A stretch of 20,335 bases of DNA from a virus (taxonomy: Duplodnaviria; Heunggongvirae; Uroviricota; Caudoviricetes), in IMG/VR virus record IMGVR_UViG_2698536518_000010. The stretch is one strand, 5' to 3'. The notes beneath the pieces are model-generated. The model worked only from the letters and a program-made list of their open reading frames with translations. It had not been told where the DNA came from and did no database searches. Position numbers and translations under genes: made by a program. Of the stretch, positions 1-15,454 are shown piece after piece. The stretch's first letter is position 1, and each line of letters opens with the position of its first letter.

Positions 1-1731
1 TTAGCCTGAGATATATTCATCCGCTGCGTTCTTGATTATTTTTGACCTAACATTTTTAATGTACGGTATTTTTTTCAGATCATCCCTCGAACAGTGAACG
101 ATATCACCCACTTTAGGATAGGTTTCTTTTATTCGGTCGCATATTGCGTTACTAATTGACAAGCAACTAACCGGATCATCAAGAAGTTGTCCTACAATTG
201 ACCTTGTTGGTACAGGTGTCCCACACTTAGGACAAAACTTCGCATCTCCAGGTAACTCAGCGGAACAAGTTTGACACTCATCAGCTGATTCTTTCAATTT
301 TTCTAAAAAACGCTCTAATTCAGAATCTGCTGCGCCAAATTCTTTATAATCAGCGAGAGATAATAGTGTTATTATCTCCCCGAACTTATTAGATACGAAT
401 GCTTTTTCAGTGAAAAGTAATGATAAATTAACCATGTAGCGCTGACCCGATTTTCGATTAGACATCTTCACGGACCCTTGCTTGGAAAGAACACCAGAAT
501 AACAAAGCAAATCTAGAGACAATCTAAGATTTGGAGAAATAACGGGAGGAAGAACAAAAAAAGCAGATTGGGTTTGAGTCTTTTTCTCTCTGTTATTTTT
601 CAATCTAAGCTCAGGGATAATACACTCCCTAAGAATATCAAGTCCAATGCGAACATGGTGAGAATACTTAGGTAATCGTTTTGAAAGCCCTAAATGATAA
701 GGTAATAATTCTTGATTGACATAATCCTGAGTGCAAGTTAAAAGATCTCTTTCAGTATAACCTTTCTCATATACTTTATTAAATAAATGGAGAAATGCTC
801 TAGGGTTTCCGGATGAAAGATGAATACATTGATCTAGCAAATCACCTTTAGCCAATATTCTCTTTTTTGCTGCTCCTTGTGTGACCCGTTTATCTAATAG
901 ATCACGATATAAACGTCGTGTTCGTTCCCGCCCAATATTTCCAGTTTCGTATCCTCCGAGGTTTATCATCATGGCATCTTGACCAACTTCAAAATTTTTA
1001 CCATACGATGTAATTGACGGATATACAGCCGCCTTAACTGCAATTTTACCGCCATGAAGCAATTTAAATATTTCGAAGAATATTTCCTGCTGTTCTGGTA
1101 TAAAGGTATGAGCAGCCTCATCAAATAAAAAAACAATTCTATTAAGTTGGTATTCTTGAATTATCTCCTTGATGATGTCATTTACATAACTTATATCATT
1201 AACCTTATCTAAAAAATCCTCTCCAATTTCATTCAACAATTTATCTGAAGAAGGATCTCTTGATAACCTTTGAAGCAGATGAATTTTAGATTGTAGAGCA
1301 TCTTTCATTCCAGTTATAGTTTTAATCCCAAAAATTCTTTGAAATGGATCACTGCTATTATTGTCACGAATGACATCTAAAAATATCAACTTTTCGTACA
1401 AAGCTTGTAGTAACTTAGCGCTTACCCATATCTGAAATGCATTTTTATTGTCAGCTTTAACCCCTTCCAGCAAAGTACTGGTTTTGAAATTAACATATAC
1501 CCCCACAATCTTTTTAACAGGAAAATCACTATCTAATTCAGCTTCTGCCGCTCTTAGAAGCATAGACTTTCCAATTCCTCTGGCACCCTGAATCAGATGA
1601 GAGCCCGCTATTTTTAGTTTTGCTACAACATCTTTTTCAAACTCACCAAGAACAGCCAGTTGTTTGACCTGTTTCAACTCAAGATCTTCGGTACGTGCTG
1701 CATGTAATAACTCAGTGTCTAACATAGACAT
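1..1731 (-). CDS. P-loop NTPase (AAA_16/STAND-like motifs) with C-terminal zinc ribbon and basic tail; downstream gene of a candidate defence cassette
   Basis: 576-aa ORF. Walker A GARGIGKS (codons at about 1564-1587), Walker B-like VFLFDEAAH, CxxC-x10-CxxC ribbon CQTCSAELPGDAKFCPKCG (about 220-276). TAA stop at 1-3. Start ATG overlaps the upstream stop (TAATG, 1729-1733). AT-rich codon usage. Family is by motif only. Confidence 0.75.
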   Translation of the reverse strand: MSMLDTELLHAARTEDLELKQVKQLAVLGEFEKDVVAKLKIAGSHLIQGARGIGKSMLLRAAEAELDSDFPVKKIVGVYVNFKTSTLLEGVKADNKNAFQIWVSAKLLQALYEKLIFLDVIRDNNSSDPFQRIFGIKTITGMKDALQSKIHLLQRLSRDPSSDKLLNEIGEDFLDKVNDISYVNDIIKEIIQEYQLNRIVFLFDEAAHTFIPEQQEIFFEIFKLLHGGKIAVKAAVYPSITSYGKNFEVGQDAMMINLGGYETGNIGRERTRRLYRDLLDKRVTQGAAKKRILAKGDLLDQCIHLSSGNPRAFLHLFNKVYEKGYTERDLLTCTQDYVNQELLPYHLGLSKRLPKYSHHVRIGLDILRECIIPELRLKNNREKKTQTQSAFFVLPPVISPNLRLSLDLLCYSGVLSKQGSVKMSNRKSGQRYMVNLSLLFTEKAFVSNKFGEIITLLSLADYKEFGAADSELERFLEKLKESADECQTCSAELPGDAKFCPKCGTPVPTRSIVGQLLDDPVSCLSISNAICDRIKETYPKVGDIVHCSRDDLKKIPYIKNVRSKIIKNAADEYISG

Positions 1732-2420
1732 TATAAAACTACCTCACTAGATTTAGGAAATGAAGATAGCACTTCTTTTCTTATCTTATGACGAACAATA
1801 TTGGAATTAATTATCATACCCAAAACAACCTCAGCCAGACCTATGAACCTCTCCCAATCTTCACTTTCAAAAGTGAACTTATTAGGCAAATCAGTTTCAA
1901 ATGAGGTTATTTTTCCATGAACGATATCACTTAATTGTCCATAAATTTTCTGTGCTCTTCTCATATCAATAACACATACTTTCCCTCCTATCTTCTCATT
2001 TTCTGTGAAGTAGTCTATATAGCCTTGATTTGTTATATGCTTCAACATATCACTGAAACTTAAGTCTTCATCATGATTTTTCCAAGAATATACAACATGA
2101 GGCATATCCCAAAGATAAATAGATGCGACACCTAGTTCCAAAACTCTCCTTAGAACAATATTAGCTGGTTTATCTATGGCACAGGCAGAAAGATATAAAG
2201 AAGATGACGTATCAGCAATAATCTCACTAAAAATTTTAATACAAACATCATGATGAACTGATGTTTTCTTTTTATTCAAAATTTCAGCAATCGTGTTAAG
2301 AGTGAAAATTGAGATAATTACTTTATCTAATTTTTTATCTTGTATGCCCTGCCATTCACGAAAGTTACTATTGAACTTATCGCTTAGCATATTAATTATC
2401 TCAGTAGGTGATTTGTTCAT
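1731..2420 (-). CDS. Hypothetical 229-aa protein, upstream partner of the NTPase (possible effector); no recognisable motif
   Basis: 229-aa ORF with stop overlapping the NTPase start by 1 nt (translational coupling). AT-rich. Preceded by AT-rich intergenic region 2421-2520 with AAGGGA upstream of the ATG. Confidence 0.65.
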   Translation of the reverse strand: MNKSPTEIINMLSDKFNSNFREWQGIQDKKLDKVIISIFTLNTIAEILNKKKTSVHHDVCIKIFSEIIADTSSSLYLSACAIDKPANIVLRRVLELGVASIYLWDMPHVVYSWKNHDEDLSFSDMLKHITNQGYIDYFTENEKIGGKVCVIDMRRAQKIYGQLSDIVHGKITSFETDLPNKFTFESEDWERFIGLAEVVLGMIINSNIVRHKIRKEVLSSFPKSSEVVL

Positions 2421-2807
2421 TTATTATGCATATCCCTTGTTTTTATCTGTCAATCAACAAGATAATAAGTATAATTTTATAATACAAGAAAATAAAAAGC
2501 CTTATTGATGTGTTTTATTGCTACTAAAGCGCGCAATGCTCTCCCCAGCAGGCCTGCCCGCTACACAGAGCAGTTTTCATGCAAGTGCATGATAAAAGCC
2601 TATCAGAATCGGCAGTTTTCAACATAAACGCCCACTAGCTACAGAGTGCAATTTTTCGTCATCGGCAATATCAACAACTAAACGCATAAATCAGACAAAC
2701 TGCTACCCGGCTCAATTTTGAGCCGTCTTTTAATCAACGGGTTATCGCCGCAGCATGTCCGGTTTCTTCCACTCGTAAGGCACGGCGTTCTCTCTATGCT
2801 GGTGGCG

Positions 2808-3002
2808 TCAACGGGCTGCCAGTATCGCCGCCGATCGGATGCGGATATGCAGCAAATCTCCTTCATTCGGAGCATGATCTTCTAGCTGCATTGCAGCAGC
2901 TACCACGTCCGCATAATCGGCAAATCTGGCTTTCTTTGGCAATTCGCTAATTCCAGCCACGCTGCGCACTATATCCAGCAAATCGGCTTCGGTGATGGTC
3001 AT
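2808..3002 (-). CDS. Hypothetical small protein (64 aa)
   Basis: ORF with AAGGTG Shine-Dalgarno 6 nt upstream of ATG at 3002. No recognisable domain. Overlapped out of frame by ORF 2678-2875, so it may be a remnant. Confidence 0.4.
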   Translation of the reverse strand: MTITEADLLDIVRSVAGISELPKKARFADYADVVAAAMQLEDHAPNEGDLLHIRIRSAAILAAR

Positions 3003-3033
3003 GGTTTACACCTTAGGAAATCTTAATATCGCA

Positions 3034-3241
3034 GGTTGACACACTTGACACTTTTTCGCGAAAAACCCTGGCATTTCTAAGCATGACAACTTGACACTTT
3101 TCGCGGTTTTCACGGGTTTCTGGCGTGGTAAATATGGCTCAAGGCCAGTAATGGCAGGGTTTACAGCGAGGTTGACACTTTTTCGTGTTCAGAGTGTAAA
3201 GTGCCAACCTGGCAAGCTGCTCAACTTGACACTTTTTGCGG
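3034..3241. repeat. Array of direct repeats with core TTGACACTTTT(T)CGCG (copies at 3034-3060 as a doublet, 3090-3106, 3170-3187, 3225-3241)
   Basis: Read directly: GGTTGACACA-CTTGACACTTTTTCGCG, CTTGACACTTTTCGCGG, GGTTGACACTTTTTCGTG, CTTGACACTTTTTGCGG in the intergenic space between the 3245-3787 and 2808-3002 genes. Confidence 0.7.
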
Positions 3242-3244
3242 CCG

Positions 3245-3769
3245 TTAATGACCTGTTTTTTCCCATGCAGCCAGGGCGTTTAGTCCGGCTTCGCTCCAGT
3301 TATCCAGCTCGTCAGGACAAGCATCAGCCACATAACAGACCTCACGTCGCAGCGTACCAATCACCAGTTCGGCATTCTGCCTGAGATCATATTGCTCGAA
3401 ATAAAACTCAGCATCGCCGTCATCCATCCAAATCCCGCCATCATCAAGAAATTGCACTTCCCAGTCTAATTCCCCGGCTGCATCCAGCACACGTTGCTGT
3501 ATGTCGTCGTCCGTTACTGGCGCAGGGATTTTACCGTCTCTGGCCTTAACTGCTTTCCAGAACTCGCCCCACGTCATTTCCAGCGTTCTTTCTGGCCACA
3601 TTTCAGAAACGGTGTCTTTCCCCTGTGCCGGTGGGCTGTTCCGCTGCTCTGTCGCCTCCACATCAATTTTTTTGCCAGACATGATCACTTCGCCTTTCTC
3701 GATCCAGTCGTAAACTGTCTGGCGGCTTACGCCTTTGTATTTGGCGTATTCGGCTTTACTCATCAACAT
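3245..3769 (-). CDS. HTH (excisionase/MerR-like HTH_17-type) DNA-binding protein with acidic C-terminal region
   Basis: ORF track gives 3245-3787. GAGGTGA Shine-Dalgarno precedes the internal ATG at 3769 (MLMSKAEYAKYKGVSRQTVYDWIEKGE). The VSRQTVYDWI motif resembles the AlpA/Xis-type HTH. Confidence 0.55.
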   Translation of the reverse strand: MLMSKAEYAKYKGVSRQTVYDWIEKGEVIMSGKKIDVEATEQRNSPPAQGKDTVSEMWPERTLEMTWGEFWKAVKARDGKIPAPVTDDDIQQRVLDAAGELDWEVQFLDDGGIWMDDGDAEFYFEQYDLRQNAELVIGTLRREVCYVADACPDELDNWSEAGLNALAAWEKTGH

Positions 3770-3868
3770 GTAACTCACCTCATGCATATACGATAAAAAA
3801 TAATTTCATGCGAAAAGGGAATGCGTTGTGGGTATGGAGGAAAGGGGCAATAACCGCCCCTTACTGAT

Positions 3869-4141
3869 TCAGTTGCGCCAGGATGGCTGGCTAAGCGTGG
3901 TTTTCATTACATCATTGACGACCTGCTTTACGATTTCTGTGTTGGCAGTCGTGCTTTCAACATCAACAAAGCCATAATCGCCAATTTCCACCGTCAGGGA
4001 TTCCAGTTTCTTCCCCAGTGCATCAGGCAACTCTCCACTGAACCGGTGCCGAAGATTTTCCACCAGCAAAGCCCTGAATGCCTCGCTGTTCTCTTTTTTC
4101 TGCCATAGCTGGCGTTTATCCACACTGATATTTAATTTCAC
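3869..4141 (-). CDS. Hypothetical protein (90 aa), GTG start
   Basis: ORF with GTG start overlapping the TGA of the upstream small frame (GTGA at 4138-4141). No recognisable domain. Confidence 0.45.
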   Translation of the reverse strand: MKLNISVDKRQLWQKKENSEAFRALLVENLRHRFSGELPDALGKKLESLTVEIGDYGFVDVESTTANTEIVKQVVNDVMKTTLSQPSWRN

Positions 4142-4305
4142 AGCCTCACCTCTTTAAGTGCCTTATCCATCAGTTGCCGGGCAATAACATGAATCGACGG
4201 TGCCACACCAAGCACAGATTTCTGACGCTTTTCGGCCTGGATACGTTACAGGGCTTCGATCTGCCCCCGGGAAAGTAAAACTGGCTTTACTCCGTGATTT
4301 TTCAT
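4138..4305 (-). pseudogene. Small frame (55 codons) interrupted by an in-frame TAA at codon 20 (plus-strand tta at 4246-4248)
   Basis: ATG at 4305-4303. Translation MKNHGVKPVLLSRGQIEAL-stop-RIQAEKRQKSVLGVAPSIHVIARQLMDKALKEVRL, then TGA overlapping the GTG of the 90-aa gene. Confidence 0.3.
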
Positions 4306-4544
4306 GATGATCCCTTCTGAATGACAATAATTGCAATAAATGAAACAAAAAGCATCAATAAACCAACCTTCGGCACTAAATGCTCTGATTTTTCTGCAAA
4401 GGTATGGTAGATGTTGCTGCATGCAAACATAAAGGAAATAGCAGAAGAAACAGCGGGGAGTGAAAAGGGGAAGTTTTTATAAATACACGATTGTCGCCTC
4501 ACTGCAGGTTAACAGCCACAAACCCCATGATAATAACTTGTTAA

Positions 4545-4868
4545 TTATTTCATCAGATTTTTCATTATTTGCGCGATTGAGTACACAAGCAAAAACTCGG
4601 CAGCCGCAAGAGTATAAAAAACATAGATTCGCTTAGCCCACCGACGATGAAAGAACTCCTCAGCATGACCGAATGTTCGAGATACAAGCCATGCACCTAC
4701 TGCACACAGAGCAGGTGCAATGAGCACAGTTATAAACCAGATTGTGATACCCATCCCATGCCTACTGATAATAGCCATTGGTATTGCAAAAATGAATGTT
4801 AGAGCAGCATTAGCTAATAGAATATCTTTTAAAGTATTTTCAATTAGTTTTTCTAGATTATCTTTCAT
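4545..4868 (-). CDS. Small hydrophobic membrane protein (107 aa, 2-3 predicted TM helices)
   Basis: ORF with hydrophobic stretches (LLANAALTFIFAIPMAII, ITIWFITVLIAPALCAVGAWLV). A G7 tract (4874-4880, minus strand) acts as Shine-Dalgarno 5 nt upstream of the ATG. Confidence 0.55.
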   Translation of the reverse strand: MKDNLEKLIENTLKDILLANAALTFIFAIPMAIISRHGMGITIWFITVLIAPALCAVGAWLVSRTFGHAEEFFHRRWAKRIYVFYTLAAAEFLLVYSIAQIMKNLMK

Positions 4869-4887
4869 CTAATCCCCCCCGTTGAAC

Positions 4888-4920
4888 ATTAATATATAAA
4901 AGCCCCTTACTAAGGGGCTT
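4888..4920 (-). terminator. Rho-independent terminator after the lipoprotein gene
   Basis: 8-bp stem AGCCCCTT/AAGGGGCT (4901-4908 and 4913-4920) with 4-nt loop, followed on the minus strand by a U/A-rich tract (TTATATATT). Confidence 0.5.
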
Positions 4921-4932
4921 TGCACGGATTGT

Positions 4933-6075
4933 TTAAAGGGAACTTTTTTTCGCCCCTTCAATTTCTGCCTGACAAATTTCGTCATTTGTAAATGAGTACT
5001 GCAGATAGACATATCCCTGAGTGGAATTGTTCGCTCTGGCCTCAATAGAGATAGTATCGATATTGTTTTTTAATGGTATTTCTTTTGTTCCCTTCCATGT
5101 GGCAGATAAGAAGCGTTCTTTTTTGTTTAGCCCCCTCATCCAGTCCTGAGGATCTTTCCAAATTGAACCAGCCAGCAAAAAGTCTGTAGTATCAGCCTTT
5201 CCATACAGAGAACTTAAAGAATTACTCAATTCTTCAAACTTGGATTTAAGAGCCAATCCATAGCTATCAGTATCAATATTTTTTCCTAAAGCCCGTATTT
5301 GACATAAACCAGCTTTCGGGGAGATCAGCAAACCATACATTTCAAAATCTGCGTTTTGCTTCGGTAATTTATCAGAAGTATACAGATTCACACTGTCTGG
5401 TAGTGGCTTGAGCTTAGCACCGATCATATCTTCGATGTTTTTCTGTGTAAGACCGGCTTCTAAGCCAAACGGACCATCCGCTGGCGGGAGTAAAGGAAGT
5501 TGCTCTTGGGAATTTTTGGCTGTTACTTCCGTTTCAGTACTGTTTTTTGCGTCATTAGCTTGTACTGATGCCAGCTTAACTTCAGCGAGGCCATACTTGG
5601 CTGTGAGGTACTTTTGCTGCAACATTGCCATGGTCTGCTCTTCAGTGGCAACAGTAGATAATTTTAGTACCTTTATCAGACCACCACTATACTGACGAGC
5701 ATCAGCTTTGGCTTCGTTGATTTTTGCATCTAAGCTGTCAATTTCAGTTTTAATTGAAGCCGCAAGCTCAGGATCAGGTTTTACTCCAGATACAACAACA
5801 TCAATTTTGGCACCTGATTCAATAGCATTAATACGCTGTTCCAAAAGCGCTTTATTAGTTCCTAATATTTCCAGTCTTGCTGTTGTCAGATTTTTTATCA
5901 ACCCACCAGAAAACTGCTGGTCAACTTCCTTAGCTGCTGATATTTCACCTTCCGTTTGCGACAGTTCAGCTTTAAGAGCCGCTACTTCCTGTTTCTGTTC
6001 TGGAGTTAACTCTTCTGGCCCACATCCGGTTAACATTACTATACCGACTAATGTTGCAATTAAAGTTTTATTCAT
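4933..6075 (-). CDS. Lipoprotein (380 aa) with internal repeat motif, function unknown
   Basis: N-terminal signal peptide with lipobox LTGC (MNKTLIATLVGIVMLTGC). Two copies of an xSGGLIKxL-containing segment. Coiled-coil-like composition. Confidence 0.8.
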   Translation of the reverse strand: MNKTLIATLVGIVMLTGCGPEELTPEQKQEVAALKAELSQTEGEISAAKEVDQQFSGGLIKNLTTARLEILGTNKALLEQRINAIESGAKIDVVVSGVKPDPELAASIKTEIDSLDAKINEAKADARQYSGGLIKVLKLSTVATEEQTMAMLQQKYLTAKYGLAEVKLASVQANDAKNSTETEVTAKNSQEQLPLLPPADGPFGLEAGLTQKNIEDMIGAKLKPLPDSVNLYTSDKLPKQNADFEMYGLLISPKAGLCQIRALGKNIDTDSYGLALKSKFEELSNSLSSLYGKADTTDFLLAGSIWKDPQDWMRGLNKKERFLSATWKGTKEIPLKNNIDTISIEARANNSTQGYVYLQYSFTNDEICQAEIEGAKKSSL

Positions 6076-6209
6076 ATCCCTATTCCAAATGAAAATATTC
6101 AGATTAATCTTATCAGGAACCCAGATGCAATTGAATATTCATCTGCTCAGCAACGTAGTAGATTTCCTCAGAAAGCATCAACAAAAAACCAAGAGAATCC
6201 CATCCTCTG

Positions 6210-6497
6210 TTACTGACTACAATTGTTCTTTTTTTGGTATTTCCTGAATGCCTCACCATTGGGCTGATGTAATCCCATCCCGGCATGTGCCCGGCTGATG
6301 GTTTCGCGCATCTCCCCGAAATTATCCTGCCTTGCTGGTGGGCATGCTGCCTTGTGGATACATTCCGCGCGACGTTTTGCCGCCTGTTCCCGTGCCTTGT
6401 CATCATTCGCCAGCATGATGACCTCAGCCCACCGCGCCGCCGCTCTCCGGTACAGACCACGCGCTTCCAGTGCTTCCGCTTTGCTGTCGTGAATCAT
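6210..6497 (-). CDS. PerC-family-like transcriptional regulator (95 aa)
   Basis: Motif KAEALEARGLYRRAAARWAEV resembles the conserved PerC/Pch core as I recall it. 4-nt overlap with the upstream ProQ-like gene. Confidence 0.5.
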   Translation of the reverse strand: MIHDSKAEALEARGLYRRAAARWAEVIMLANDDKAREQAAKRRAECIHKAACPPARQDNFGEMRETISRAHAGMGLHQPNGEAFRKYQKKNNCSQ

Positions 6498-7036
6498 GCG
6501 CCTATTGTCTCCTTTGCTGCCCGGCGCTGGCGTTTGCGCTTCTCATTCAGCGCCACCAGCCGCGTTTCTGCGTCCTGTTGTTCCTGTGGTGTCACCTCGC
6601 CGCACGGCTGGCCTTTCAGGTCGTAGCGTACCCCACCAGCCATTAAGGCGCGGTAATAGCGCGGACACTGCGCATAAGATGCCAGCGTCGCACGCAATGC
6701 CCCTGGCCCGAATGCCAGCCCCCTGACGGCGAGATCCTGCATCAGGTCGTCGAATATCCCCACCTTAAGCGGCTTCAGTGCTTCCCGGCTGAATAAGTCA
6801 GGCCACAACTCAGTGAGGCGGTTAACGCGCCTGCGGTTTTTGCGCTGGCGTTTGGTCATATGCCGCCACGGTGTCGCCCCTGTAGGCTTCTGCTGCGCTT
6901 TCTGGTTACCGGGCATCACTTTATGCGCCGATGTGGTTTTATCCTGCTCCTGTGCCGCCTGCGTCGTTTTCTGTGGCGTGCCGTAAATACCTTTTGGTTT
7001 TCTGTTAATGGTCAGCTTAGTCATGCTTTGCCCCAT
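6494..7036 (-). CDS. ProQ/FinO-domain RNA-binding protein
   Basis: Segment LTELWPDLFSREALKPLKVGIFDDLMQDL...YYRALMAGGVRYDLKGQPCGEVTPQEQQDAETRL aligns by eye with the E. coli ProQ N-terminal FinO-like domain (LAERFPHCF...PLKIGIFQDL...RVDLDGNPCGEL). Likely true start is ATG at 7024 (GGGG upstream). Confidence 0.8.
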   Translation of the reverse strand: MGQSMTKLTINRKPKGIYGTPQKTTQAAQEQDKTTSAHKVMPGNQKAQQKPTGATPWRHMTKRQRKNRRRVNRLTELWPDLFSREALKPLKVGIFDDLMQDLAVRGLAFGPGALRATLASYAQCPRYYRALMAGGVRYDLKGQPCGEVTPQEQQDAETRLVALNEKRKRQRRAAKETIGA

Positions 7037-7045
7037 CGTTACAAC

Positions 7046-7380
7046 TGTCTACCAACTGTCTACCGATATAATTGATTGATTTATTTAATGTTATTAACAC
7101 ATAACAAAAAAACAATCTGCAAACTGTCTACCAACGGTCTACCGCATTAATACATTGATAATTAATGATTTTTACTAAATGGTAGACAGTGTAGACAGTT
7201 AAAAGAGAAATTTAAAAAATACCCCCTTAACTATCTGTTTTTTATATACCCCCCGTGGTTTAGGAATATAGAAATAACTGTCTACCTCTCTACCACATTG
7301 AAAATATCTTTATAATTCAAAATATTAATTGGTAGATGGTTGGTAGAGGGTTAAGTGAATCTGTCTACCAACCGTCTACC
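7046..7380. repeat. Iteron-type origin-like region: at least 8 direct copies of (T/G/C)GTCTACC and 4 inverted copies (GGTAGA) separated by AT-rich spacers
   Basis: Direct octamers at 7046-7053, 7057-7064, 7125-7132, 7136-7143, 7279-7286, 7287-7294, 7362-7369, 7373-7380. Inverted copies at 7181-7188, 7190-7197, 7331-7336, 7342-7347. Lies immediately 3' of the primase/helicase gene. Confidence 0.75.
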
Positions 7381-7407
7381 TTTACGTTTCAGCTTATAAA
7401 TTTCGTA

Positions 7408-9213
7408 TTATGTTCTGTCGTTAATCCCTGTAGCTGCTGGCAACCAGCCATCAGCATCATCATCTAACAGAACATTTGTTATCACTCGCCCTTTATCCGG
7501 GCCTTTAGTGCATTTAGCCCGCTTATACTCCTTTCCGTATTCCGCCATAGCTCCTGGCATATCAGTACCAAAGCGTGTCAGTGATACTGGTTTTCCCAGG
7601 CCATGCGCTGACATATAGGCTAAATAAGCATGATACAGGTATCGCCTCGGGCTAAATGGCACTATTTCCGCATTGCCCACCATCATTCCTTCACATTTAA
7701 CCAACGACATCAGATAGCCGCAAAAGTCCACCAGTGAATCACCTTCGCGCTTTATCAACAGCGCTTCTTCTGATTTTTGCTGCTCATAAAGTAGTCTTTT
7801 AGCTTCGTCCTGGTCGGTAAATCGTGTTAGCAAATGGCGAATCACTACCGCCAGTTCGCCTTCTATCTTTTCCGCCAGCATGGGATCGCGTTCGTTCTCC
7901 GGTACGACCTCAGAGAAATTAAATATCACCCTACGACGCGAGATCCCCCCGCTTCGGTCACTGAATGACATGGCGTTATTGTTTACCGCAAGCACTACTG
8001 CCGGAATACGTGTGGAGTAGGGGGCTTTATGTTTCGGATCAATTGCCACCTTGTCGCCGCCAGTAATTGCCTTAATTCCTGCACCATCGCCAGCGTAGCG
8101 AGTCATATCCGGCATGATAATCAGCGAAAAGCCAACTACTAACGCGCGTTCCCTTGCGTCTTCCAGAGCCTTCATGCTTGCCGATACTGTGTTGGCCTTA
8201 CCCGCCAGCATGGTACAAATCTCCGCCATCACACTTTTACCGCTTCCGCCCGGCCCCGTTACCTCAAGGAATAACTGCCAGTCGTACCGGTTCGCCAGTA
8301 CCATGAATAATGCCGCCAGTACGCGATCCGCTTTACGAGCATTATCCGCCACCGAACGACGCAACCACTTCCAGAAATTCGGCGCATGTGTTGCCAGCGT
8401 TTCCCCCTCTTCTGGCGGGCTGAACGGTAATTCACTGGCATTTAACAACCAGTCATTTTTGTTGTGTTCCCGAAAATTTCCTGTCCTGATATCAAAAACA
8501 CCGTTACTGAACCCAATAAGATTTCTGTCCGCTCCCCCCATAACAGGTAGACTCAATTTCATTGTCTCTACGGCAAATTTAATGGCGTTTTGCGAATAAC
8601 TAATTTCGGCATCAATAAAAATCTTCGCCATAGACCGCTGGAGTTCCTTATCAGATACAGGCTCCCAAACAATTCCGTTGTAATGGTGAACTACATCAGA
8701 ATCATCATTTATCGCCAGTGCTCCTCCATAATGTTCAAGTAACACTTCCCCTCTCTGGCTGGCTCCCATCTGATTTAATGCAGGCTTGGGTAGACCACTA
8801 TTTTTTGTAGCTAATTTCATCACTGAAACTTCCCCGTGCTCAGCCTGTTCGCGGATCCGTTGCAGGTAGTCGCGCCAGTTCTCCGGTTCCTGGTCGGTGA
8901 TACCTTTGTATAATTTCGCCTCCTGTACGCCAGCCAGCGCCAGCTTTTCAGCGATAGTATTGATCTGGATTGGCTCTATCTCCCCCGCGATATAGACACG
9001 CGCAAAACGGCGTTTCTCGTCAATAATGCGGATATTCGCCAGGTCTGCCAGTTGCTTTGGCCCCAGGTAAACAGGAGGCACGTTATCGCCGTGTTTTCGT
9101 CCTTCACTTTCAATCCAGTGTTGAGCATGGGCGTAAGCATCCGTCCCGGCAAAAATGATTACCTCAGTGAATTTATCCTTCGGCTGATATTTTAGACTCG
9201 GTGCGTTTTTCAC
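7408..9213 (-). CDS. Replicative primase/helicase, P4 alpha-like (SF3 helicase P-loop GPGGSGKS)
   Basis: 601-aa ORF. Walker A VTGPGGSGKSV and Walker B-like LIIMPDM. Start overlaps upstream gene (ATGA). Followed by the iteron region. Confidence 0.85.
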   Translation of the reverse strand: MKNAPSLKYQPKDKFTEVIIFAGTDAYAHAQHWIESEGRKHGDNVPPVYLGPKQLADLANIRIIDEKRRFARVYIAGEIEPIQINTIAEKLALAGVQEAKLYKGITDQEPENWRDYLQRIREQAEHGEVSVMKLATKNSGLPKPALNQMGASQRGEVLLEHYGGALAINDDSDVVHHYNGIVWEPVSDKELQRSMAKIFIDAEISYSQNAIKFAVETMKLSLPVMGGADRNLIGFSNGVFDIRTGNFREHNKNDWLLNASELPFSPPEEGETLATHAPNFWKWLRRSVADNARKADRVLAALFMVLANRYDWQLFLEVTGPGGSGKSVMAEICTMLAGKANTVSASMKALEDARERALVVGFSLIIMPDMTRYAGDGAGIKAITGGDKVAIDPKHKAPYSTRIPAVVLAVNNNAMSFSDRSGGISRRRVIFNFSEVVPENERDPMLAEKIEGELAVVIRHLLTRFTDQDEAKRLLYEQQKSEEALLIKREGDSLVDFCGYLMSLVKCEGMMVGNAEIVPFSPRRYLYHAYLAYMSAHGLGKPVSLTRFGTDMPGAMAEYGKEYKRAKCTKGPDKGRVITNVLLDDDADGWLPAATGINDRT

Positions 9214-9500
9214 TTCTTACCTCCCGCAACCAACATTGCCCGGATTTTTTTAATATTCGTGGCTGCACGTCTCGCCACTGCCTGTTGTTTGTTTTCCACC
9301 AGAATAAAATCACGATCAAACTGACGGCGCGGCATTACGCAGTCATATTCGTAAGCCTCACGGCGGTAGGTGATATTGCCTGGCGTAACGTGACGAATAA
9401 CCACCCGTCCCCCGCGTCTGGTGTCCCGGGAAATATCACCGGGGCGGATTTCAGGCCGAGAGAGGCCGCTGGCAGTAAAGCCAGAATTTTTCTTTTTCAT
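9210..9500 (-). CDS. Hypothetical basic protein (96 aa) in the replication operon
   Basis: ORF whose stop overlaps the primase start. No recognisable domain. Confidence 0.5.
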   Translation of the reverse strand: MKKKNSGFTASGLSRPEIRPGDISRDTRRGGRVVIRHVTPGNITYRREAYEYDCVMPRRQFDRDFILVENKQQAVARRAATNIKKIRAMLVAGGKK

Positions 9501-9504
9501 GGTT

Positions 9505-9705
9505 TTATTTTCCTGTCAGCAGTTCCGGTTTTATTTCCGCACGAATACAAAGTTCAGAAAAAAATTCAGGAGAACCAACAATCTCATTACTTTTCAGTCG
9601 GCATTGTGATTTCACTTTCCCTTTATCCAGGTAAACCAGTACGCGTCCGGTGAAATCATCTGGCACATTAAGCACTACGGGTACATGCGCTTCATGATTA
9701 TGCAT
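9505..9705 (-). CDS. Hypothetical protein (66 aa), short paralogue of the 9924-10289 gene
   Basis: GGAGGA Shine-Dalgarno. N-terminus MHNH...DDFTGRVLV parallels MHNL...EKFTGQLLV of the larger gene. Confidence 0.5.
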   Translation of the reverse strand: MHNHEAHVPVVLNVPDDFTGRVLVYLDKGKVKSQCRLKSNEIVGSPEFFSELCIRAEIKPELLTGK

Positions 9706-9931
9706 GGCTTACATCCTCCGTGAATTTTCTTCTGTAACGCGTCTCTGCCACATATTCCGCATAGTCCGACGCAATACTAAGAATCATTTCACCCTCTGAC
9801 TTGTAGCCACTGGTATTGATAAGAAAATATGCAGCTTTCATCATGTCAGCAACGCTCAACAATGCGCCCGCTGCATCTTCCGGTGCGCCATCAAATTCCC
9901 GTTTCAGGGAATTAAAACGATCATCACGCAT
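9698..9931 (-). CDS. Hypothetical protein (77 aa)
   Basis: ORF overlapping neighbours by 8 nt at both ends (operon-style packing). Confidence 0.45.
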   Translation of the reverse strand: MRDDRFNSLKREFDGAPEDAAGALLSVADMMKAAYFLINTSGYKSEGEMILSIASDYAEYVAETRYRRKFTEDVSHA

Positions 9932-10289
9932 GTTTACCCCCCTGAATGACCTGATAACCGCAACTGGTCAGCAACTCGATAAATTCCGGCAGTGTGCCGA
10001 AACAGCAATCATCACGCAGCCGTTCGCGGGATACTTCAACGCCGTTTTCGTAGTGACTCACCATACGCCCGGTAAAATGCAGATCATCATCGTGATGGCT
10101 CGTTGACGGCTTAATCAGTCGCGCACGTTCCGCCAGTTCCAGCAATGCTTCAACGCTTCCGGCAATTGCACCATCCGGCAGGTGGTAATTACGCACTATG
10201 CGCCCGTTCTCCACATTGACCAGCAACTGCCCGGTAAATTTCTCGTCAAACTGAATGCTGTTAAGGTCAGAAATTGACAGGTTATGCAT
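9924..10289 (-). CDS. Hypothetical protein (121 aa from SD-supported ATG at 10289; ORF track start 10307)
   Basis: AGGAGGT Shine-Dalgarno 6 nt upstream of ATG at 10289. Paralogous N-terminus to the 9505-9705 product. Confidence 0.5.
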   Translation of the reverse strand: MHNLSISDLNSIQFDEKFTGQLLVNVENGRIVRNYHLPDGAIAGSVEALLELAERARLIKPSTSHHDDDLHFTGRMVSHYENGVEVSRERLRDDCCFGTLPEFIELLTSCGYQVIQGGKHA

Positions 10290-10506
10290 GGTGCACCTCC
10301 TGCACATCAGCCATGATAATTTTTCCGGCCTTATCCAGTGCCTGATCGGCTTTTAGCTGCACAAATGCTAAATAATGGGAGATGCATTCTGATTCTCTGG
10401 CTGCGTGTTTATGCGCCACACCAGCGATAGCAGAAATCTCAATAAGTGAATCCATCAGCGTTTTGATAGCGTCTACCGCTGCATCAGGCCATGTTGCATT
10501 ACACAT
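10282..10506 (-). CDS. Hypothetical protein (74 aa)
   Basis: ORF with ATGTGTAA start/stop overlap with the upstream 67-aa gene. Confidence 0.4.
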   Translation of the reverse strand: MCNATWPDAAVDAIKTLMDSLIEISAIAGVAHKHAARESECISHYLAFVQLKADQALDKAGKIIMADVQEVHHA

Positions 10507-10702
10507 GTTCCACCTCCTGGCGAATACGGGCTGCGAATACCATCACGCAGCCATCAGGAGATTGCTGGCGTGCTTCCTGTTCGCTGGTGGCCTCGATGTG
10601 AATTACGCGCGGTTGTGCCGTGCTCAGGGCGATAAAACGCCAGATGTATTTATTCAGGTTGTGCGAGTCCCGCCCTTGCGGGTGTGTGGTATGATTTCTC
10701 AT
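10499..10702 (-). CDS. Hypothetical protein (67 aa), first gene of the leftward operon
   Basis: C-terminal part of the 435-codon ORF-track frame. ATG at 10702 preceded by GAGGT Shine-Dalgarno. Lies just downstream of the operator cluster. Confidence 0.45.
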   Translation of the reverse strand: MRNHTTHPQGRDSHNLNKYIWRFIALSTAQPRVIHIEATSEQEARQQSPDGCVMVFAARIRQEVEHV

Positions 10703-10798
10703 AGCTACCTCGATACTCTTGCTATCGTTGGTGGTTAGACGCCCTGCATGTGTGCCACCACTGCGGGGCGTTGTCGTTTCTGCACCTTGCATCAACAA

Positions 10799-10853
10799 GG
10801 TGTTGAACACCAATTTAAGCCTAGGTGTTAAACACGTCAAGTGTTGAACACTT
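10799..10853. promoter_or_regulatory. Three copies of an 11-bp perfect palindrome GTGTT(G/A)AACAC (10800-10810, 10825-10835, 10841-10851); candidate operator cluster in a divergent promoter region
   Basis: Read directly. Third copy overlaps a TTGAAC -35-like hexamer with CATACT 17 bp downstream. Sits between the leftward operon and the rightward small RHH gene. Confidence 0.6.
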
Positions 10854-10901
10854 ATTTTTTTTCCTGCATACTGCATTTGTTTTTTGTAAGGGGTACACAA
10901 C

Positions 10902-11081
10902 ATGGCGACAAAAGCAGTAAACGCAAAATCACAAACAGTTGCGGCAAGGGTTCCGCATGAAGTTATGAACAATGTTGAGGCGGTAAAAATGCCTGGTGAA
11001 AGTACAGGGCAGTTTGTAACAGCAGCATTAAAGCGAGAAGTTGAATACCGCCAGCGCCGCAAGGCCAAAGAACAGGAGTAA
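10902..11081 (+). CDS. Ribbon-helix-helix (Arc/CopG-like) small DNA-binding protein, 59 aa (below ORF-track cutoff)
   Basis: ATG at 10902 with AAGGGG upstream. Translation MATKAVNAKSQTVAARVPHEVMNNVEAVKMPGESTGQFVTAALKREVEYRQRRKAKEQE fits a beta-strand/helix/helix pattern. Confidence 0.45.
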   Translation: MATKAVNAKSQTVAARVPHEVMNNVEAVKMPGESTGQFVTAALKREVEYRQRRKAKEQE

Positions 11082-11798
11082 CCATCACCAGCGCCGTGGT
11101 GTGAGGAACTACGGTGCATCGTTTTACAGGGCTGCGCCATGACCAACAAAGAATCAACCAATACACCATCACCGGCACGGAAAAGACAGCGCAGAAAGAT
11201 AGCGTACGAGCATGAGTCAAACAGATTCGCGCCCTGTGCGTTTATCCTTGAGAAATTCCTTAAAGAGTACAGGCGCACAAAAATGGGGTCGCATACCTGG
11301 AAAACATCGCGGCATGGCAATGTTAAAGAGCAGGAATAGCCCACCAGCAAGCCAGCATATTCACCATAATGACCCTCAGTTAAACATAGAGTCATTGGTG
11401 CAAAGCTGACACATTGCCCACCAGCCGCAAATCTGGCATTGTTGGCGATGCGTTCAAGTATGTAGCTTTCCCACTGGCGGCCCTCTGCGGTCGCCTTTGT
11501 TTTATCCAGAACGAAATCAGACATCAGATTGATCAGCACCTGGCGACCTGACAAAATCGCATCAGTCGCGCCACCAGCAAAATTTTTTGCTTTCCGGACA
11601 GTGTGACCAACGACATTTTGCAGCAAAATATTCTGCATTTCTGGCGTGCTGTAGTAACGGTGATCAGCGCCTTCACTCTGTGCGACCACAACGCTATAAT
11701 CTGCCTCGTAGACAGTAAGCAATATGGCGCAGTAGGCTATTCGTTCACAAAGGCGCTCCGGCAACGGGGCGCTTTCTCTTTTTGTAACGGTCAGAGCG

Positions 11799-12599
11799 TT
11801 ACACATGGCTGTTTTCCTCCATGCGACGGGCTAACCAACGCTGCGAAAGACGAATTAATTCAGCCTTCCGCTGGTGGTAGTCCTGGCCTAACTCAATCAG
11901 CGTGATATTGCTCTGCTCAAGGTAAGAAAGGTGCTCAAGCTGCAACGTGCTCATGTGGTCGCGTGGTTCGCCTGTAATGCCGTTCGCCAGTGCCCACTGT
12001 TTTGCAGTCATGCCACCCAGTACGATACGCGCCAGCATGTTCGCTTCCGTGGTGTAGTGGTGCTGGAGTGTGTTTTTACCCAGTTCAGCCCGGTACGCCT
12101 CCAGCGCGGCACACATTGGCTTAAAGTAGCTGGCAACTGTGATACGGGCTTTCAGTTCCCGGCGTAACGCTGCGGAACGAACAGGCGCAACCTTGTGTAG
12201 CTCCTCCTCGCATTTGATAAAGTACTGGCGAACGGCGCGGCCCTGTTCGGTACGTTCGACCATCGCCAGTTCTTTCGCCATGTTCACTGTGATGATGTAC
12301 TCAAGAGCGGTTTGCTGGCGAGATTTTGCGCTCACCGGATCGGGTCGGCTCAAATATTCAACAACCTCATAATCCACGCCTTCCGTGAACCCGTATTCTT
12401 CAATGCGCCCCTTGATCCACGAACGGAAAACGCGCCCTACACCTAACGCCTTATGTAACGCTCTGGCGCTAACAATAGTGGTTTCACTCCCGCCAATAAC
12501 GCCGGAAATAATCGGGATAATTTCGCCGAAATTTTGCAGATTCTGGTTTTCAGGCCGAACGAAGCCCCGCCCCTGTACGGGCGTTTTTGGAAATTTCAT
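11799..12599 (-). CDS. Phage antirepressor-like protein (ANT/KilAC-type motif)
   Basis: 266-aa ORF. Segment ITVNMAKELAMVERTEQGRAVRQYFI resembles the conserved antirepressor core as I recall it. Confidence 0.6.
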   Translation of the reverse strand: MKFPKTPVQGRGFVRPENQNLQNFGEIIPIISGVIGGSETTIVSARALHKALGVGRVFRSWIKGRIEEYGFTEGVDYEVVEYLSRPDPVSAKSRQQTALEYIITVNMAKELAMVERTEQGRAVRQYFIKCEEELHKVAPVRSAALRRELKARITVASYFKPMCAALEAYRAELGKNTLQHHYTTEANMLARIVLGGMTAKQWALANGITGEPRDHMSTLQLEHLSYLEQSNITLIELGQDYHQRKAELIRLSQRWLARRMEENSHV

Positions 12600-12676
12600 A
12601 AAAACTCCTGCTATCGAATTAAGTTACTTTTATTTGCTGGTGGATAGCTGGGGGAAATAGCCCCGTAGCCATTTAA

Positions 12677-12874
12677 TCAGGTAGCTGTTCCGCGTGATTC
12701 CGCAATACGCTGATTAATCCACTCGTCAATTTCACTCTCAACGAAAGCAATAGCTCGCGAGCCAATTTTAACTGATGCAGGAAATTTACCTTGCCCCATA
12801 AGGCGATAAATCCATGCCTTGCTATATCCAGTTCTACGCTGAACTTCTGTTAAACGAATAAGCGTATTTGACAT
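12677..12874 (-). CDS. alpA: AlpA/Vis-family transcriptional regulator / excisionase-like protein
   Basis: 65-aa ORF MSNTLIRLTEVQRRTGYSKAWIYRLMGQGKFPASVKIGSRAIAFVESEIDEWI, typical AlpA-type HTH. Located two genes from the integrase. Confidence 0.85.
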   Translation of the reverse strand: MSNTLIRLTEVQRRTGYSKAWIYRLMGQGKFPASVKIGSRAIAFVESEIDEWINQRIAESRGTAT

Positions 12875-12943
12875 ATATTTACCTCATAACGTCTACTCAA
12901 TTTGACGAGGTAATCCTGGCACAGAAATAACGAATATTTTCAT

Positions 12944-13086
12944 ACCCTCAGGCCTAATGGTTACCGGAAGGAAATTAACCCTAAGGGTGATGGTAATCGG
13001 GAGGAAATCTACCCTAAGGGTGATGGTAAAATTGACGGGGAAGATAAAAAAATACCCTCAGGGTAACAGTAAATCACCCTCAGGGT
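12944..13086. promoter_or_regulatory. Repeated palindrome ACCCT(A/C)AGGGT (12978-12988, 13011-13021, 13054-13064, 13076-13086, plus half-site near 12944-12952) upstream of alpA
   Basis: Read directly. First two copies are followed by GATGGTAA. Lies between the stop of the 267-aa gene and the alpA start. Confidence 0.55.
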
Positions 13087-13101
13087 ATGCGGTATGGTGC
13101 G

Positions 13102-13905
13102 TTAATCCGGCTTTGCGTTCTTTTGGCTGTTGTCTCGGTTAATAGGGCAGGCAGTCCTCTCTATGAGCGTTGCAAGTGCATTACTTGCCCCCCACTGCTT
13201 AAGCTCCCTGGTTATCGCTTCTTGATTTCCCCTAGTGGCAAAATCATTTTCTGGATCGTAATTGGCCCACTCTCTGTTTCTAATCTCAATAGCCTTAGCT
13301 AATGGGTCTTTATCCCAGTATTTATATAAGTGTATCGGGCGCTCTTGCTCTAACTGCTCTATCCTTGCCCTTAACTCTGCGTTTTCTTTTTCCAGCATTG
13401 CGATTTGGGATAATAAATCATCCTCTGTACGCAACTCTTTCTTTTCAATATCGCGTCCTTGTGCCTCGTCATTTTCAGAAGAGTTAGCGCCTTCCAGCTT
13501 CGTTAACGCGTCAAGGACATCGGGAAAAATTGCGAAAATTTCACCCCTTATAAATCCAATGTTCTCAAATTCGGGATCTTCCCAATAACCGGACACCAGA
13601 AAACCATTTTCATCCCTCTCACCAGGTAAACAACCACGTTTCCGAACCGCATTCAGATTTCTATAAAGAACATCATAATCAAATTCATCCCGATACGGGT
13701 TACAAAAAGATTCCAACAGCTTAAATTCATTTACTGTGTACAGGCGGATATGTTCTCCGCTTATTCTCCTGAGTATCCAAGTTATGACATCTGAAACATC
13801 ATAATCATCACCAGCGACCTTAAGCACGACCTCAAGAAATTCACGTAAAGAAATAAAATCTTTTTTGTATTCGTTTAATTCGGCATGAATATCAATCATA
13901 CGCAC
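13102..13905 (-). CDS. Hypothetical 267-aa protein with coiled-coil segment, between integrase and alpA
   Basis: ORF with heptad-like stretch LLSQIAMLEKENAELRARIEQLEQE. AT-richer than neighbours. No recognisable catalytic motif. Confidence 0.65.
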   Translation of the reverse strand: MRMIDIHAELNEYKKDFISLREFLEVVLKVAGDDYDVSDVITWILRRISGEHIRLYTVNEFKLLESFCNPYRDEFDYDVLYRNLNAVRKRGCLPGERDENGFLVSGYWEDPEFENIGFIRGEIFAIFPDVLDALTKLEGANSSENDEAQGRDIEKKELRTEDDLLSQIAMLEKENAELRARIEQLEQERPIHLYKYWDKDPLAKAIEIRNREWANYDPENDFATRGNQEAITRELKQWGASNALATLIERTACPINRDNSQKNAKPD

Positions 13906-14027
13906 ACCTCAGCGTCCTCTACTGTAGTGGCTGTACCAGTCCGTCGAGGTGTACGGATTTTCGGGAGCGACCCTAGACACAGCCTTTTCTTTCGTCGCTC
14001 AAAGTCTACTACTGTATACGCAACCAG

Positions 14028-15242
14028 TCATCCACATTTTCCGAACTTGCCATGCACCACGTTACCGCCATGTTCGAGCGAATCCATATAGTCGGCGTAC
14101 CACTGGAGCATCTCGCGCCGCCCGTCCAGATATTGCGCATGATTGTACGTGCCACGAATTGAGTTCTTATCAACGTGTGCAAGCTGCGTTTCTATCCACG
14201 CGGTGTTATAGCCCTGCTCATGTAAAATCGTGCTCATGGTGTGCCGGAATCCATGACCAGTAACCTTTCCGTTATAGCCGATGCGTTTAAATACTTGGTT
14301 TATGCTAGCCTCGCTCATTGTTTTCCTTGGATCATTACGGCCGGGAAACATAAGCGGATAATTACCAGTTAATTCTTTAATCTGCCCAATAAGAGAAAGA
14401 GCCTGCTTAGACAAAGGCACCACATGAGGGCGACGCATTTTCATCCGTGAAGCAGGTATCTCCCAGATAGCCTTGTTGAGATCGATTTCATCCCATAATG
14501 CACCGCGCAGTTCGCCAGTTCGCAAACCAGTGATAATCAGTAGACGAGCCGCCATAACAACCAATGCACTTCCTGAGTAACTGGACAATGCCTTGAAAAA
14601 ATCAGGCAATTCTTTGGCTGTGAGGAAAGGATAATGATTAGATTCATGGCCTTGCATCGCGCTAGTAAGATCTGGGGCAGGGTTATACTCTGCGCGACCA
14701 GTGACTATTGCATAGCGGAAAACTTCCCCGCACCGCTGCCTCACTTTTTTGGCTTTTTCTGTAGCACCGCGCCCCTCGATGCGTCGCAGCACATTCAGAA
14801 GTTCAAGTGGTTTGATTTCGGCGATTGGTTTTTTGCCAATGTAAGGGAACACATCTTTGTTGAAGGCTTCGAGGATATCTGAAGCATAACCAGCAGACCA
14901 TTTTTTTAATTTGCTGCTGTGCCACTCAAGGGCAATATCTTTGAAGGTATTGTTTAACTGCGTTTCCCGGGCAATCTTTTCCTCTCGTTTCGCTTCCATC
15001 GGATCGATACCCCCAGCGATACCCCTTTTAGCTTCTTCACGTTTTGCACGAGCATCAGCCAAGGTAACTTCAGGATACACACCTAGTGCTAACAGCTTCT
15101 CTTTACCAGCTACACGATATTTAAAGCGCCAGTATTTTCCTCCACTAGGTTTTACCAGGAGATACAGACCACCACCATCAGCCAGCTTGTAAGCCTTCTC
15201 TTTTGGCTTGGCAGTGTCTATTTGACGGGCATTGAGTTTCAC
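14028..15242 (-). CDS. int: Tyrosine recombinase, P4-type integrase
   Basis: 404-aa ORF with GTG start preceded by GGAGGT. Catalytic signature residues (RTGELR, HGFRHT, SIRGTYNHAQY). Adjacent to the tRNA 3' fragment. Confidence 0.9.
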   Translation of the reverse strand: MKLNARQIDTAKPKEKAYKLADGGGLYLLVKPSGGKYWRFKYRVAGKEKLLALGVYPEVTLADARAKREEAKRGIAGGIDPMEAKREEKIARETQLNNTFKDIALEWHSSKLKKWSAGYASDILEAFNKDVFPYIGKKPIAEIKPLELLNVLRRIEGRGATEKAKKVRQRCGEVFRYAIVTGRAEYNPAPDLTSAMQGHESNHYPFLTAKELPDFFKALSSYSGSALVVMAARLLIITGLRTGELRGALWDEIDLNKAIWEIPASRMKMRRPHVVPLSKQALSLIGQIKELTGNYPLMFPGRNDPRKTMSEASINQVFKRIGYNGKVTGHGFRHTMSTILHEQGYNTAWIETQLAHVDKNSIRGTYNHAQYLDGRREMLQWYADYMDSLEHGGNVVHGKFGKCG

Positions 15243-15408
15243 TTGGGGGTACCTCCACTAAACCGAACAGCAAATACCCCCAAAAGTCCCCCCAATTGAC
15301 TGTAGATTTTGGGGTACTTAAGTAGACGTCAAAAGACTAAAAGGGGCGATAACATGCGGATTATAAGAAGTTTTTAAATACTTGAGTAGACTTGGGGAGA
15401 CGTTAGAA

Positions 15409-15454
15409 TGGTGCCGATAATAGGAGTCGAACCTACGACCTTCGCATTACGAAT
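15409..15454 (-). tRNA. 3' fragment (about 46 nt, anticodon loop to CCA) of tRNA-Thr(CGU); att core repeat, not a complete tRNA
   Basis: Minus strand reads ATTCGTAATGCGAAGGTCGTAGGTTCGACTCCTATTATCGGCACCA. The 5' half (acceptor and D arms) is absent, since the upstream sequence cannot pair with the TATCGGC acceptor strand. Confidence 0.6.

Follow-up and report, generated by a model that had tools for sequence, protein, structure and literature searches.

An ORC/Cdc6-type ATPase paired with a HEPN-like protein: a candidate two-gene antiphage system carried by satellite islands

What is the function of two overlapping, AT-rich genes that lie at the distal end of a satellite island? We addressed this question in IMG/VR record IMGVR_UViG_2698536518_000010, a DNA of 20,335 nucleotides (nt) that is called the window below. 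Its first 2520 bases hold a minus-strand gene pair, here called A and B, which a preliminary description had taken for a defence module. We consider it reasonably likely that the pair is a stand-alone, mobile two-gene antiphage system of the abortive-infection type that occupies the defence slot of a phage satellite as cargo, in which a HEPN-like ribonuclease (RNase) would be controlled by an ORC/Cdc6-type ATPase. We infer the antiphage activity from genomic context and from the domains of the two proteins.

Structure of the gene pair and its proteins

The cassette consists of two genes, their junction and a leader:

1 to 1731, minus strand: gene B, 576 amino acids (aa), an AAA+ ATPase of the ORC/Cdc6 type that ends in nucleic-acid-binding modules; predicted to act as a sensor or switch driven by ATP
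1731 to 2420, minus strand: gene A, 229 aa, an all-helical HEPN-like protein, remote kin of DUF5677; predicted RNase effector
1729 to 1733, minus strand: TAATG stop/start overlap of A and B, translational coupling; basis, direct sequence reading
2421 to 2520, minus strand: AT-rich leader; presumed promoter and ribosome-binding region

The overlap could be read directly from the letters: A ends with ...GTT TTA TAA, B starts with ATG TCT, and base 1731 is common to both genes. A GAGG lies approximately 10 nt 5' of the ATG of B. The contrast in composition noted in the preliminary description was borne out, as the guanine-plus-cytosine (GC) content was 0.342 in 1-2520 versus 0.461 in 2521-20335 (0.41 in the lowest other 2520-base-pair window) and 0.22 in the leader. 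Third-codon-position GC was 0.25 in A, 0.27 in B and 0.49 in the primase gene of the island. The stop codon of B forms the first bases of the window. In syntenic Escherichia coli genomes, a hairpin, CCCCATGTAAATGGGG, followed by T8 stands directly beyond this stop, outside the window, and occupies 19968-20000 of locus L002; therefore, the operon is regarded as complete with a terminator. A sigma-70 consensus scan of the leader gave no minus-strand promoter match, and thus the promoter in the leader is only assumed. An Rfam scan of window positions 1-3300 returned nothing credible.

Five features were located in protein B:

1564 to 1587, minus strand: Walker A, GARGIGKS, B residues 49-56 with K55; G49, R51, G52, G54, K55 and S56 invariant
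1108 to 1137, minus strand: Walker B, IVFLFDEAAH, B residues 199-208 with D204 and E205; L202 to F210 invariant
397 to 687, minus strand: predicted winged-helix-like region, B residues ~349-445, after the AAA+ lid (GNPR, residues 308-311)
223 to 276, minus strand: zinc ribbon, CxxC-x10-CxxC, B residues 486-503; Pfam Zn_Ribbon_1, 27.8 bits versus a cut-off of 25
4 to 198, minus strand: probable helix-hairpin-helix domain resembling the C-terminal domain (CTD) of RNA polymerase alpha, B residues 512-576; sub-threshold evidence

The Walker A, Walker B (as FLFDEAAH) and cysteine motifs named in the preliminary description were all found in place, and together with the lid GNPR they are invariant, including the four cysteines, in 46 homologues from many phyla. 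The ribbon reads C486-x2-C489-x10-C500-x2-C503, and its Pfam match spans residues 486-507. B residues 38-286 match Pfam PF24389, ORC-CDC6-like, with 51.7 bits (E 7.8e-14; gathering cut-off 27), a match that covers only the N-terminal half of the 571-position model. B carries the feature set of ORC/Cdc6-like AAA+ proteins, i.e., an intact Walker A and Walker B and a sensor-2-type arginine in the lid, followed by a predicted winged helix. By its sequence, B belongs to the initiator clade of AAA+ proteins and is an intact ORC/Cdc6-like ATPase.

The C-terminal tail of B is more remote from known domains. A profile of the last 69 aa, compared with the PDB, gave only sub-threshold helix-hairpin-helix matches (Hef (HhH)2, E 0.23; RpoA 255-297, E 0.85), and a distant homologue from Clostridium butyricum reached 21.5 bits against Pfam RNA_pol_A_CTD, below the cut-off of 23.8. 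One JGI source labels a B homologue 'RNA polymerase subun...'. The last 65 residues are probably a helix-hairpin-helix of the RNA polymerase alpha-CTD type. A search of solved structures with the profiles of A and B returned the zinc ribbon (E 6e-4) and otherwise noise.

In protein A, the preliminary description had found no motif that it could name. We found a HEPN-like motif of the Rx6H type in the family of A, and the canonical arginine of this motif is absent from the window copy:

1911 to 1943, minus strand: Rx6H motif site, YGQLSDIVHGK, A residues 160-170; family form Y-R-x-L-S-[NDE]-x-V-H-G-K, with G161 for R in the window copy

The predicted model of A is all-helical (predicted local distance difference test 90.3) and places the motif in a helix (residues 153-168) that is followed by a disordered loop. 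The catalytic Rx4-6H of HEPN proteins sits at the end of a helix that leads into a loop (PMC3710099); therefore, the position of the motif in A matches HEPN topography. A Foldseek search of the model against the PDB gave no significant E-value above a noisy helical background, and the matches of highest probability were HEPN proteins. With 227 representatives among 1.84 billion proteins, the family is small; its distant relatives read Y-R-x-L-S-E-x-V-H-G-K, i.e., Rx6H, and most of them have R161. Across 128 members, Y160, S164, H168 and G169 are invariant and E66, D70, R91, E95 and R210 are invariant or nearly so; the conserved acidic residues E66, D70 and E95 precede the motif, a HEPN feature at the level of sequence.

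Position 161 is R or K in 62 of the 128 sequences and Gly in 40 of 46 close homologues of the window copy. The canonical HEPN arginine is thus a property of the family that the window copy, reading Y-G-Q-L-S-D-I-V-H, lacks, with H168 kept. We counted the arginines at two positions, uncorrected for phylogeny: 55 of the 128 sequences hold R92 only, 44 hold R161 only, 18 hold both and 11 neither. The window copy has R92 (2143-2145) and G161 (1938-1940), and R92 is fixed in the G161 clade. This pattern fits a relocation of the catalytic arginine in the clade of the window copy, and such relocation has a precedent in the Parep1/8 family (PMC3710099). Against Pfam DUF5677 (PF18928), A reached 16.3 bits (E 0.011), short of the gathering cut-off of 27.1, and 21 of 53 distant A relatives matched this family (best E 6.8e-5). 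By these scores A is not a DUF5677 member, and the relationship is remote. We regard A as HEPN-like, that is, as a putative protein of the HEPN superfamily and a predicted RNase effector.

Distribution, partners and genomic setting of the pair

We scanned one genome per species for B homologues and obtained 40 loci, which belong to Campylobacterota, Nitrospirota, Acidobacteriota, Cyanobacteriota, Bacteroidota, Verrucomicrobiota, Bacillota, several proteobacterial classes and one Methanophagales archaeon. In all, B homologues number roughly 400. In 39 of the 40 loci, spread over more than 10 phyla, an A homologue stands directly upstream of B on the same strand. The junction between the two genes measured -50 to +22 nt in 31 related loci and mostly -11 to +13 nt. 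A third component was considered and rejected, as all-against-all clustering of 592 neighbouring open reading frames (ORFs) gave no other conserved gene. B retains 54-83% full-length identity across phyla at a length of 575-589 aa, with a mean column identity of 73% and more than 150 invariant columns; it has no hypervariable region, and its length is constant from E. coli to Paenibacillus and cyanobacteria. In the same pairs, A is only 30-50% identical and diverges approximately twice as fast as B.

More distant B-like genes were found on plasmids, with six matches at 24-27% identity in 72,556 plasmid records. On the C. butyricum and Planktothrix plasmids, an A-like gene still lies upstream of the B-like gene (hhalign 100% and 99.7%). 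In Limimaricola and Cupriavidus, the B-like ATPase has no A upstream; a protein of 274 or 282 aa is encoded downstream instead. These proteins contain CHIRHAVVH or CHLRHCAVH, the canonical RHxxVH (R-[H]-x3-H) HEPN motif, and weakly match HEPN_RiboL-PSP. The reading of A as an RNase-type effector is supported because the ATPase family of B thus occurs with two different HEPN families.

On Cupriavidus necator pBB2 (locus L067, 2718-6523), an N-6 DNA methylase, the B-like ATPase and the canonical-motif HEPN protein are arranged like an operon with gaps of 15 and 7 base pairs, which suggests that some branches of the B-like family are coupled to DNA modification. On the C. butyricum megaplasmid (locus L066, 1547-5650), a serine recombinase gene is followed directly by the distant A-like/B-like pair. 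A 2025 preprint describes DUF5677 genes as enriched beside serine recombinases, and its one assayed gene did not protect.

Near the A-B pair itself, a MerR-fused N6_N4 methyltransferase occurs within 2.5 kb in four taxa in differing arrangements, with 53-63% identity among the four:

Methyltransferase module loci: 10678 to 13075 in L009; 4579 to 6585 in L010; 2617 to 4517 in L015; 10360 to 11451 in L057

A conserved partner of approximately 300 aa stands beside the methyltransferase in three of the four taxa, and in L015 the A, B, methyltransferase and partner genes are tightly packed on one strand. The pair therefore travels with a restriction-modification (R-M) module in these four taxa.

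In E. coli, the cassette is present in 4 of 5426 complete genomes, compared with 168 for the island core adjoining it. Because of this sporadic presence, its low GC (0.34) and its relatives at 54-83% identity in distant phyla, the cassette is supported as horizontally acquired cargo, as had been proposed. The copy in E. coli SCU-316 (locus L069, 1501-4218) is 98.9% identical and 18 bases longer over a 2,700-base query, and is annotated as three small ORFs only; either it has decayed or homopolymer errors of the assembly have produced this picture. The island of E. coli TUM9757 that has the pair at its far end is of satellite type, bears an integrase and stands beside tRNA-Thr; it encodes int, a helix-turn-helix (HTH) regulator, AntA, an Icd-like protein, a DUF5906 primase, ProQ/FinO and PerC. 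Between tRNA-Thr and the distal island end in locus L002, we sought att direct repeats and found none that was convincing. A tRNA scan of the window returned none.

The variability of this slot among syntenic islands, which the preliminary description had proposed to check, was evident. The same end-slot holds PARIS in O104:H4 (AriA 5e-43, AriB 3.6e-22), a methyltransferase with a DUF262/NsnA-like protein and a HEPN-like nuclease in MS8345, a 662-aa protein in ABU 83972 and two proteins of no assigned function in EC20. The MS8345 nuclease, of the MAE_28990 type, was considered as kin of A and rejected, as hhalign gave no relation to the A family.

Homologues of the pair also occupy a second kind of satellite. 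A canonical P4-like satellite of Citrobacter freundii holds the pair (B 83% identical) between its psu and int genes, in the order primase, ASH, AlpA, sid-like, Ogr_Delta, Psu, A, B, int (locus L061); in Serratia and in locus L063, the flanking genes are delta and int, at ssrA. The psu-int locus of P4-like satellites is a published defence hotspot (PMC9122126), and six of eight randomly picked loci of unknown function from the P4 hotspot protected E. coli against phages (PMC13586616). The homologues thus reside in the psu/delta-int hotspot; the window copy belongs to a different satellite type and stands at its distal end, beside a cos-like block. A setting in defence islands everywhere was weakly supported and was not retained: 5 of 125 nearest neighbours are N6_N4 methyltransferases, a few are PtuA/AbiEii-like ATPases and the rest are heterogeneous. 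A phage-borne origin was rejected, as neither the 50,697 phage records searched nor PHROGs contain B.

Known systems, proposed mechanism and rival explanations

The preliminary description had matched the pair to no named system and held that it may be undescribed. The first part stood. In PADLOC-DB v2.0.0 (including PARIS, Septu, AVAST, PD-T4/T7/Lambda and PDC), the best matches of B had E values of 0.0089-0.074 and covered the P-loop region only, and A had none. Among the antiphage families of NCBIfam release 20, B scored 27 bits on DS41_1_antiphage versus the required 370 and 25.3 on the Sll1717 family versus 75, and A had no match. No PHROGs match names an A-B system; a full-text literature search found neither accession named and no description of a HEPN plus ORC/Cdc6 pair. 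Comparison with the Lusitanian-named P4 systems (Crouga, Bandua, Aernus, Toga, Reve) and with Hailong gave no match to A-B. The second part has to be narrowed, as B is already listed in the DefensePredictor supplement: the exact protein (WP_061352522.1) is a predicted novel defence gene there, with a log-odds of 9.56 where the strict cut-off is 4, and is not among the tested or named DS systems in the tables examined. Its label, 'putative novel defense gene', suggests that DefenseFinder made no call at the time.

The DefensePredictor-validated system DS-41 (NCBIfam NF053860) was considered as the identity of B and rejected on the score given above. Residues 16-115 of B, the N-terminal P-loop part, are weakly similar to it, and both families reach archaea; however, DS-41 is a single-gene AAA system of ~450-500 aa, and B is not a member. 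PARIS (PMC9122126) resembles the pair as a two-gene cassette of an ATPase and a nuclease in satellite hotspots, found in the same end-slot in O104:H4, and acts by growth arrest upon sensing infection (PMC9122126). However, AriA is an ABC/AAA_15/21-type ATPase and AriB a DUF4435 Toprim nuclease, A-B matches no PARIS model, and its gene order is reversed, with the effector first. In the type-1 BREX-related HEPN-DUF499/BrxC-like ATPases, described by comparative genomics (PMC12839542), an N-terminal HEPN fusion extends a much larger ATPase that has PglZ/PglX-type partners, whereas A is a separate, HEPN-like protein of 229 aa from a different, DUF5677-like family, B has the zinc ribbon and the probable helix-hairpin-helix tail, and the pair has no linked genes of BREX type.

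PrrC and RloC (PMC3710099) would share with the pair the control of a HEPN RNase by an NTPase in abortive-infection-type defence. Compared by description, they are single polypeptides with an ABC-type ATPase, often in R-M operons, whereas A and B are two proteins with an AAA+ ATPase of the ORC/Cdc6 type. For the STAND/NLR-like systems (AVAST, bNACHT, Rst_TIR-NLR), B lacks a repeat-type sensor, its predicted effector is a separate gene and not a fusion, and the PADLOC STAND models were unmatched. B scored 18.7 bits on nSTAND6 versus 27.7 and 17.6 on AAA_16 versus 32.6, and its C-terminus has the zinc ribbon and helix-hairpin-helix-like tail in place of a repeat domain. The pair is none of these four: BREX-related HEPN-ATPases, PARIS, PrrC/RloC or STAND/NLR-like systems. 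The earlier reading as an NTPase plus an effector gains weight because the partner A is HEPN-like.

We propose the following mechanism for the pair as an abortive-infection system. A and B would be made together through translational coupling, and we infer that they form a complex. B would act as an ATP-dependent switch that reads a conserved infection cue; such a cue is proposed because B has no hypervariable sensor domain, and it would most likely be some structure of nucleic acid or an altered core machine of the host. Upon reading it, B would change its oligomeric state and either gather the HEPN protomers of A or release them. The protomers would then cleave cellular or phage RNA, and phage growth would stop.

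Several points weigh against this mechanism and against the defence reading as a whole. With G161, the window copy of A is without the canonical arginine of HEPN proteins, so that RNase activity would need R91 or R92 as a substitute. B is far more conserved than the usual antiphage sensors and has no variable sensor domain; of all features of the pair, this extreme conservation would most likely repay study. A DUF5677 gene assayed in Enterococcus, a remote relative only, gave no protection (PMC12632615). The validation rate of DefensePredictor was 45% of its tested units. In addition, many copies outside the enterobacteria, e.g., in Vibrio, Alcanivorax and Paenibacillus, are islets of two or three genes among housekeeping genes without recognisable defence neighbours.

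The isolated islets, which are numerous, also favour an addiction or stabilisation module of the toxin-antitoxin kind, in which a HEPN toxin A would be neutralised by B, or the reverse, and which would mainly stabilise its carrier element or islet, with any effect on phages incidental. The compact, translationally coupled operon agrees with such a module, as does the Limimaricola plasmid, where the B-like gene adjoins ParDE and HipA modules. We nevertheless think it unlikely. Known antitoxins do not resemble a multi-domain AAA+ ATPase of 576 aa that has DNA-binding modules, plasmids rarely carry the pair (the six distant matches above), and the pair fills slots that otherwise hold bona fide defence systems. 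As the categories of toxin-antitoxin and abortive infection overlap, this explanation is partly compatible with the abortive-infection system that we prefer.

The conservation of B would be accounted for by another proposal, to which we likewise give a low probability. B would guard a universally conserved cellular machine or nucleic-acid state, e.g., stalled or hijacked transcription or replication complexes, rather than sense a phage protein; it would read this state through the RNA-polymerase-alpha-CTD-like tail, the zinc ribbon and the ORC-like DNA-binding core. Its HEPN partner would still be an active RNase with its catalytic arginine relocated (R161 to R92), and the pair would represent a 'guard' type of ORC-like immune switch, a new class that spans phyla. 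Such a task would account for the constant length of this mobile defence ATPase and for its 54-83% identity, both of which hold from E. coli to Paenibacillus and cyanobacteria.

The missing arginine of the window copy leads to a further alternative, of which we are still more doubtful: B itself may be the effector, which would use its ORC-like ATPase, winged helix, zinc ribbon and helix-hairpin-helix tail to load on or coat invading DNA or to block phage replication or transcription, with A as a non-catalytic adaptor, regulator or sensor whose HEPN fold would be catalytically dead in the window clade. The canonical Rx6H arginine is indeed lost in this clade, some HEPN domains that lack the motif act in binding (PMC3710099), conservation is higher in B than in A, and B resembles DNA-loading or target-selecting AAA+ proteins, namely Orc1/Cdc6, TnsC, MuB and BrxC. 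However, the residues of A that are invariant or nearly so across the family (H168, S164, Y160, E66, D70, R91, E95 and R210) fit a retained active site, R92 is fixed where R161 was lost, as in the counts given above, and distant B-like ATPases pair with a HEPN protein of canonical RHxxVH motif.

A non-immune role, with B as an ORC-like initiator of element replication or regulation or the pair in stress-linked RNA processing, is very improbable: the initiator clade of B, its cross-phylum conservation resembling housekeeping-type constraint and the purely metabolic look of some neighbourhoods speak for it, but satellites bring primase-type replication proteins of their own, the pair is missing from sister satellites, it occurs both in satellites of two unrelated types and where there is no element at all, and it is sporadic in E. 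coli and absent from the phage records and PHROGs.

Other features of the window and the meaning of the pair

Outside the cassette, the following features were observed in the window and, in one case, in locus L002:

2529 to 2592 (wider block 2531 to 2687): conserved non-coding block just upstream of the cassette
3245 to 3787, minus strand: 180-aa neighbour with an HTH_17 N-terminus and a weak small-terminase-like match (phrog_57, E 1.8e-6)
10499 to 11806, minus strand: 435-aa ORF without a Pfam or PADLOC match; only its last 90 residues match the phage repressor-type phrog_6196 (E 4.8e-54)
16101 to 18825: EcoRII-type restriction enzyme (EcoRII-N/C; PADLOC REase_II, E 1.9e-234), convergent with a Dcm-type C5 methyltransferase
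19203 to 19518: run of 316 N, masked or unassembled
26343 to 26569 of L002: iteron-like direct repeats, ACTTTCA...GGTAGAGGGGTAGAC and CCTCTACCCACTT..., just upstream of the satellite primase gene

The non-coding block at 2529-2592 is ~80% identical to P2-like Yersinia and Escherichia phages; in one record the matching stretch is 29543-29606 of 29697, 91-154 nt from the end. In the P4-like locus L063, too, the cassette is preceded by a block related to this one, and eight other E. coli genomes carry the block at 77.5% identity. The block may be a cos-type packaging site, and the features of the 180-aa protein beside it would fit a satellite gene for packaging redirection. The EcoRII/Dcm pair, just beyond the integrase of the island, is a second defence locus in the window. 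The 435-aa ORF is probably over-extended or a fusion because sister islands annotate short Icd-like genes at this place. The run of 316 N accounts for a dip of the composition profile to an apparent GC of 0.13. The iteron-like repeats of L002 are probably the replication origin of the satellite.

If the A-B pair protects, it would add an unnamed system that reaches more than 10 bacterial phyla and at least one archaeon. The same cassette has been exchanged between two unrelated satellite types, the P4-like satellites and the thrW island, and its compact size of 2.5 kb makes it easily tested. The conservation of its NTPase is rarely seen in immune sensors and points to a conserved infection cue rather than to an arms-race target. 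If the proposed reading is true, it would link ORC/Cdc6-type ATPases with HEPN RNases as separate, swappable partners and would give a function to a DUF5677-like branch of helical proteins.

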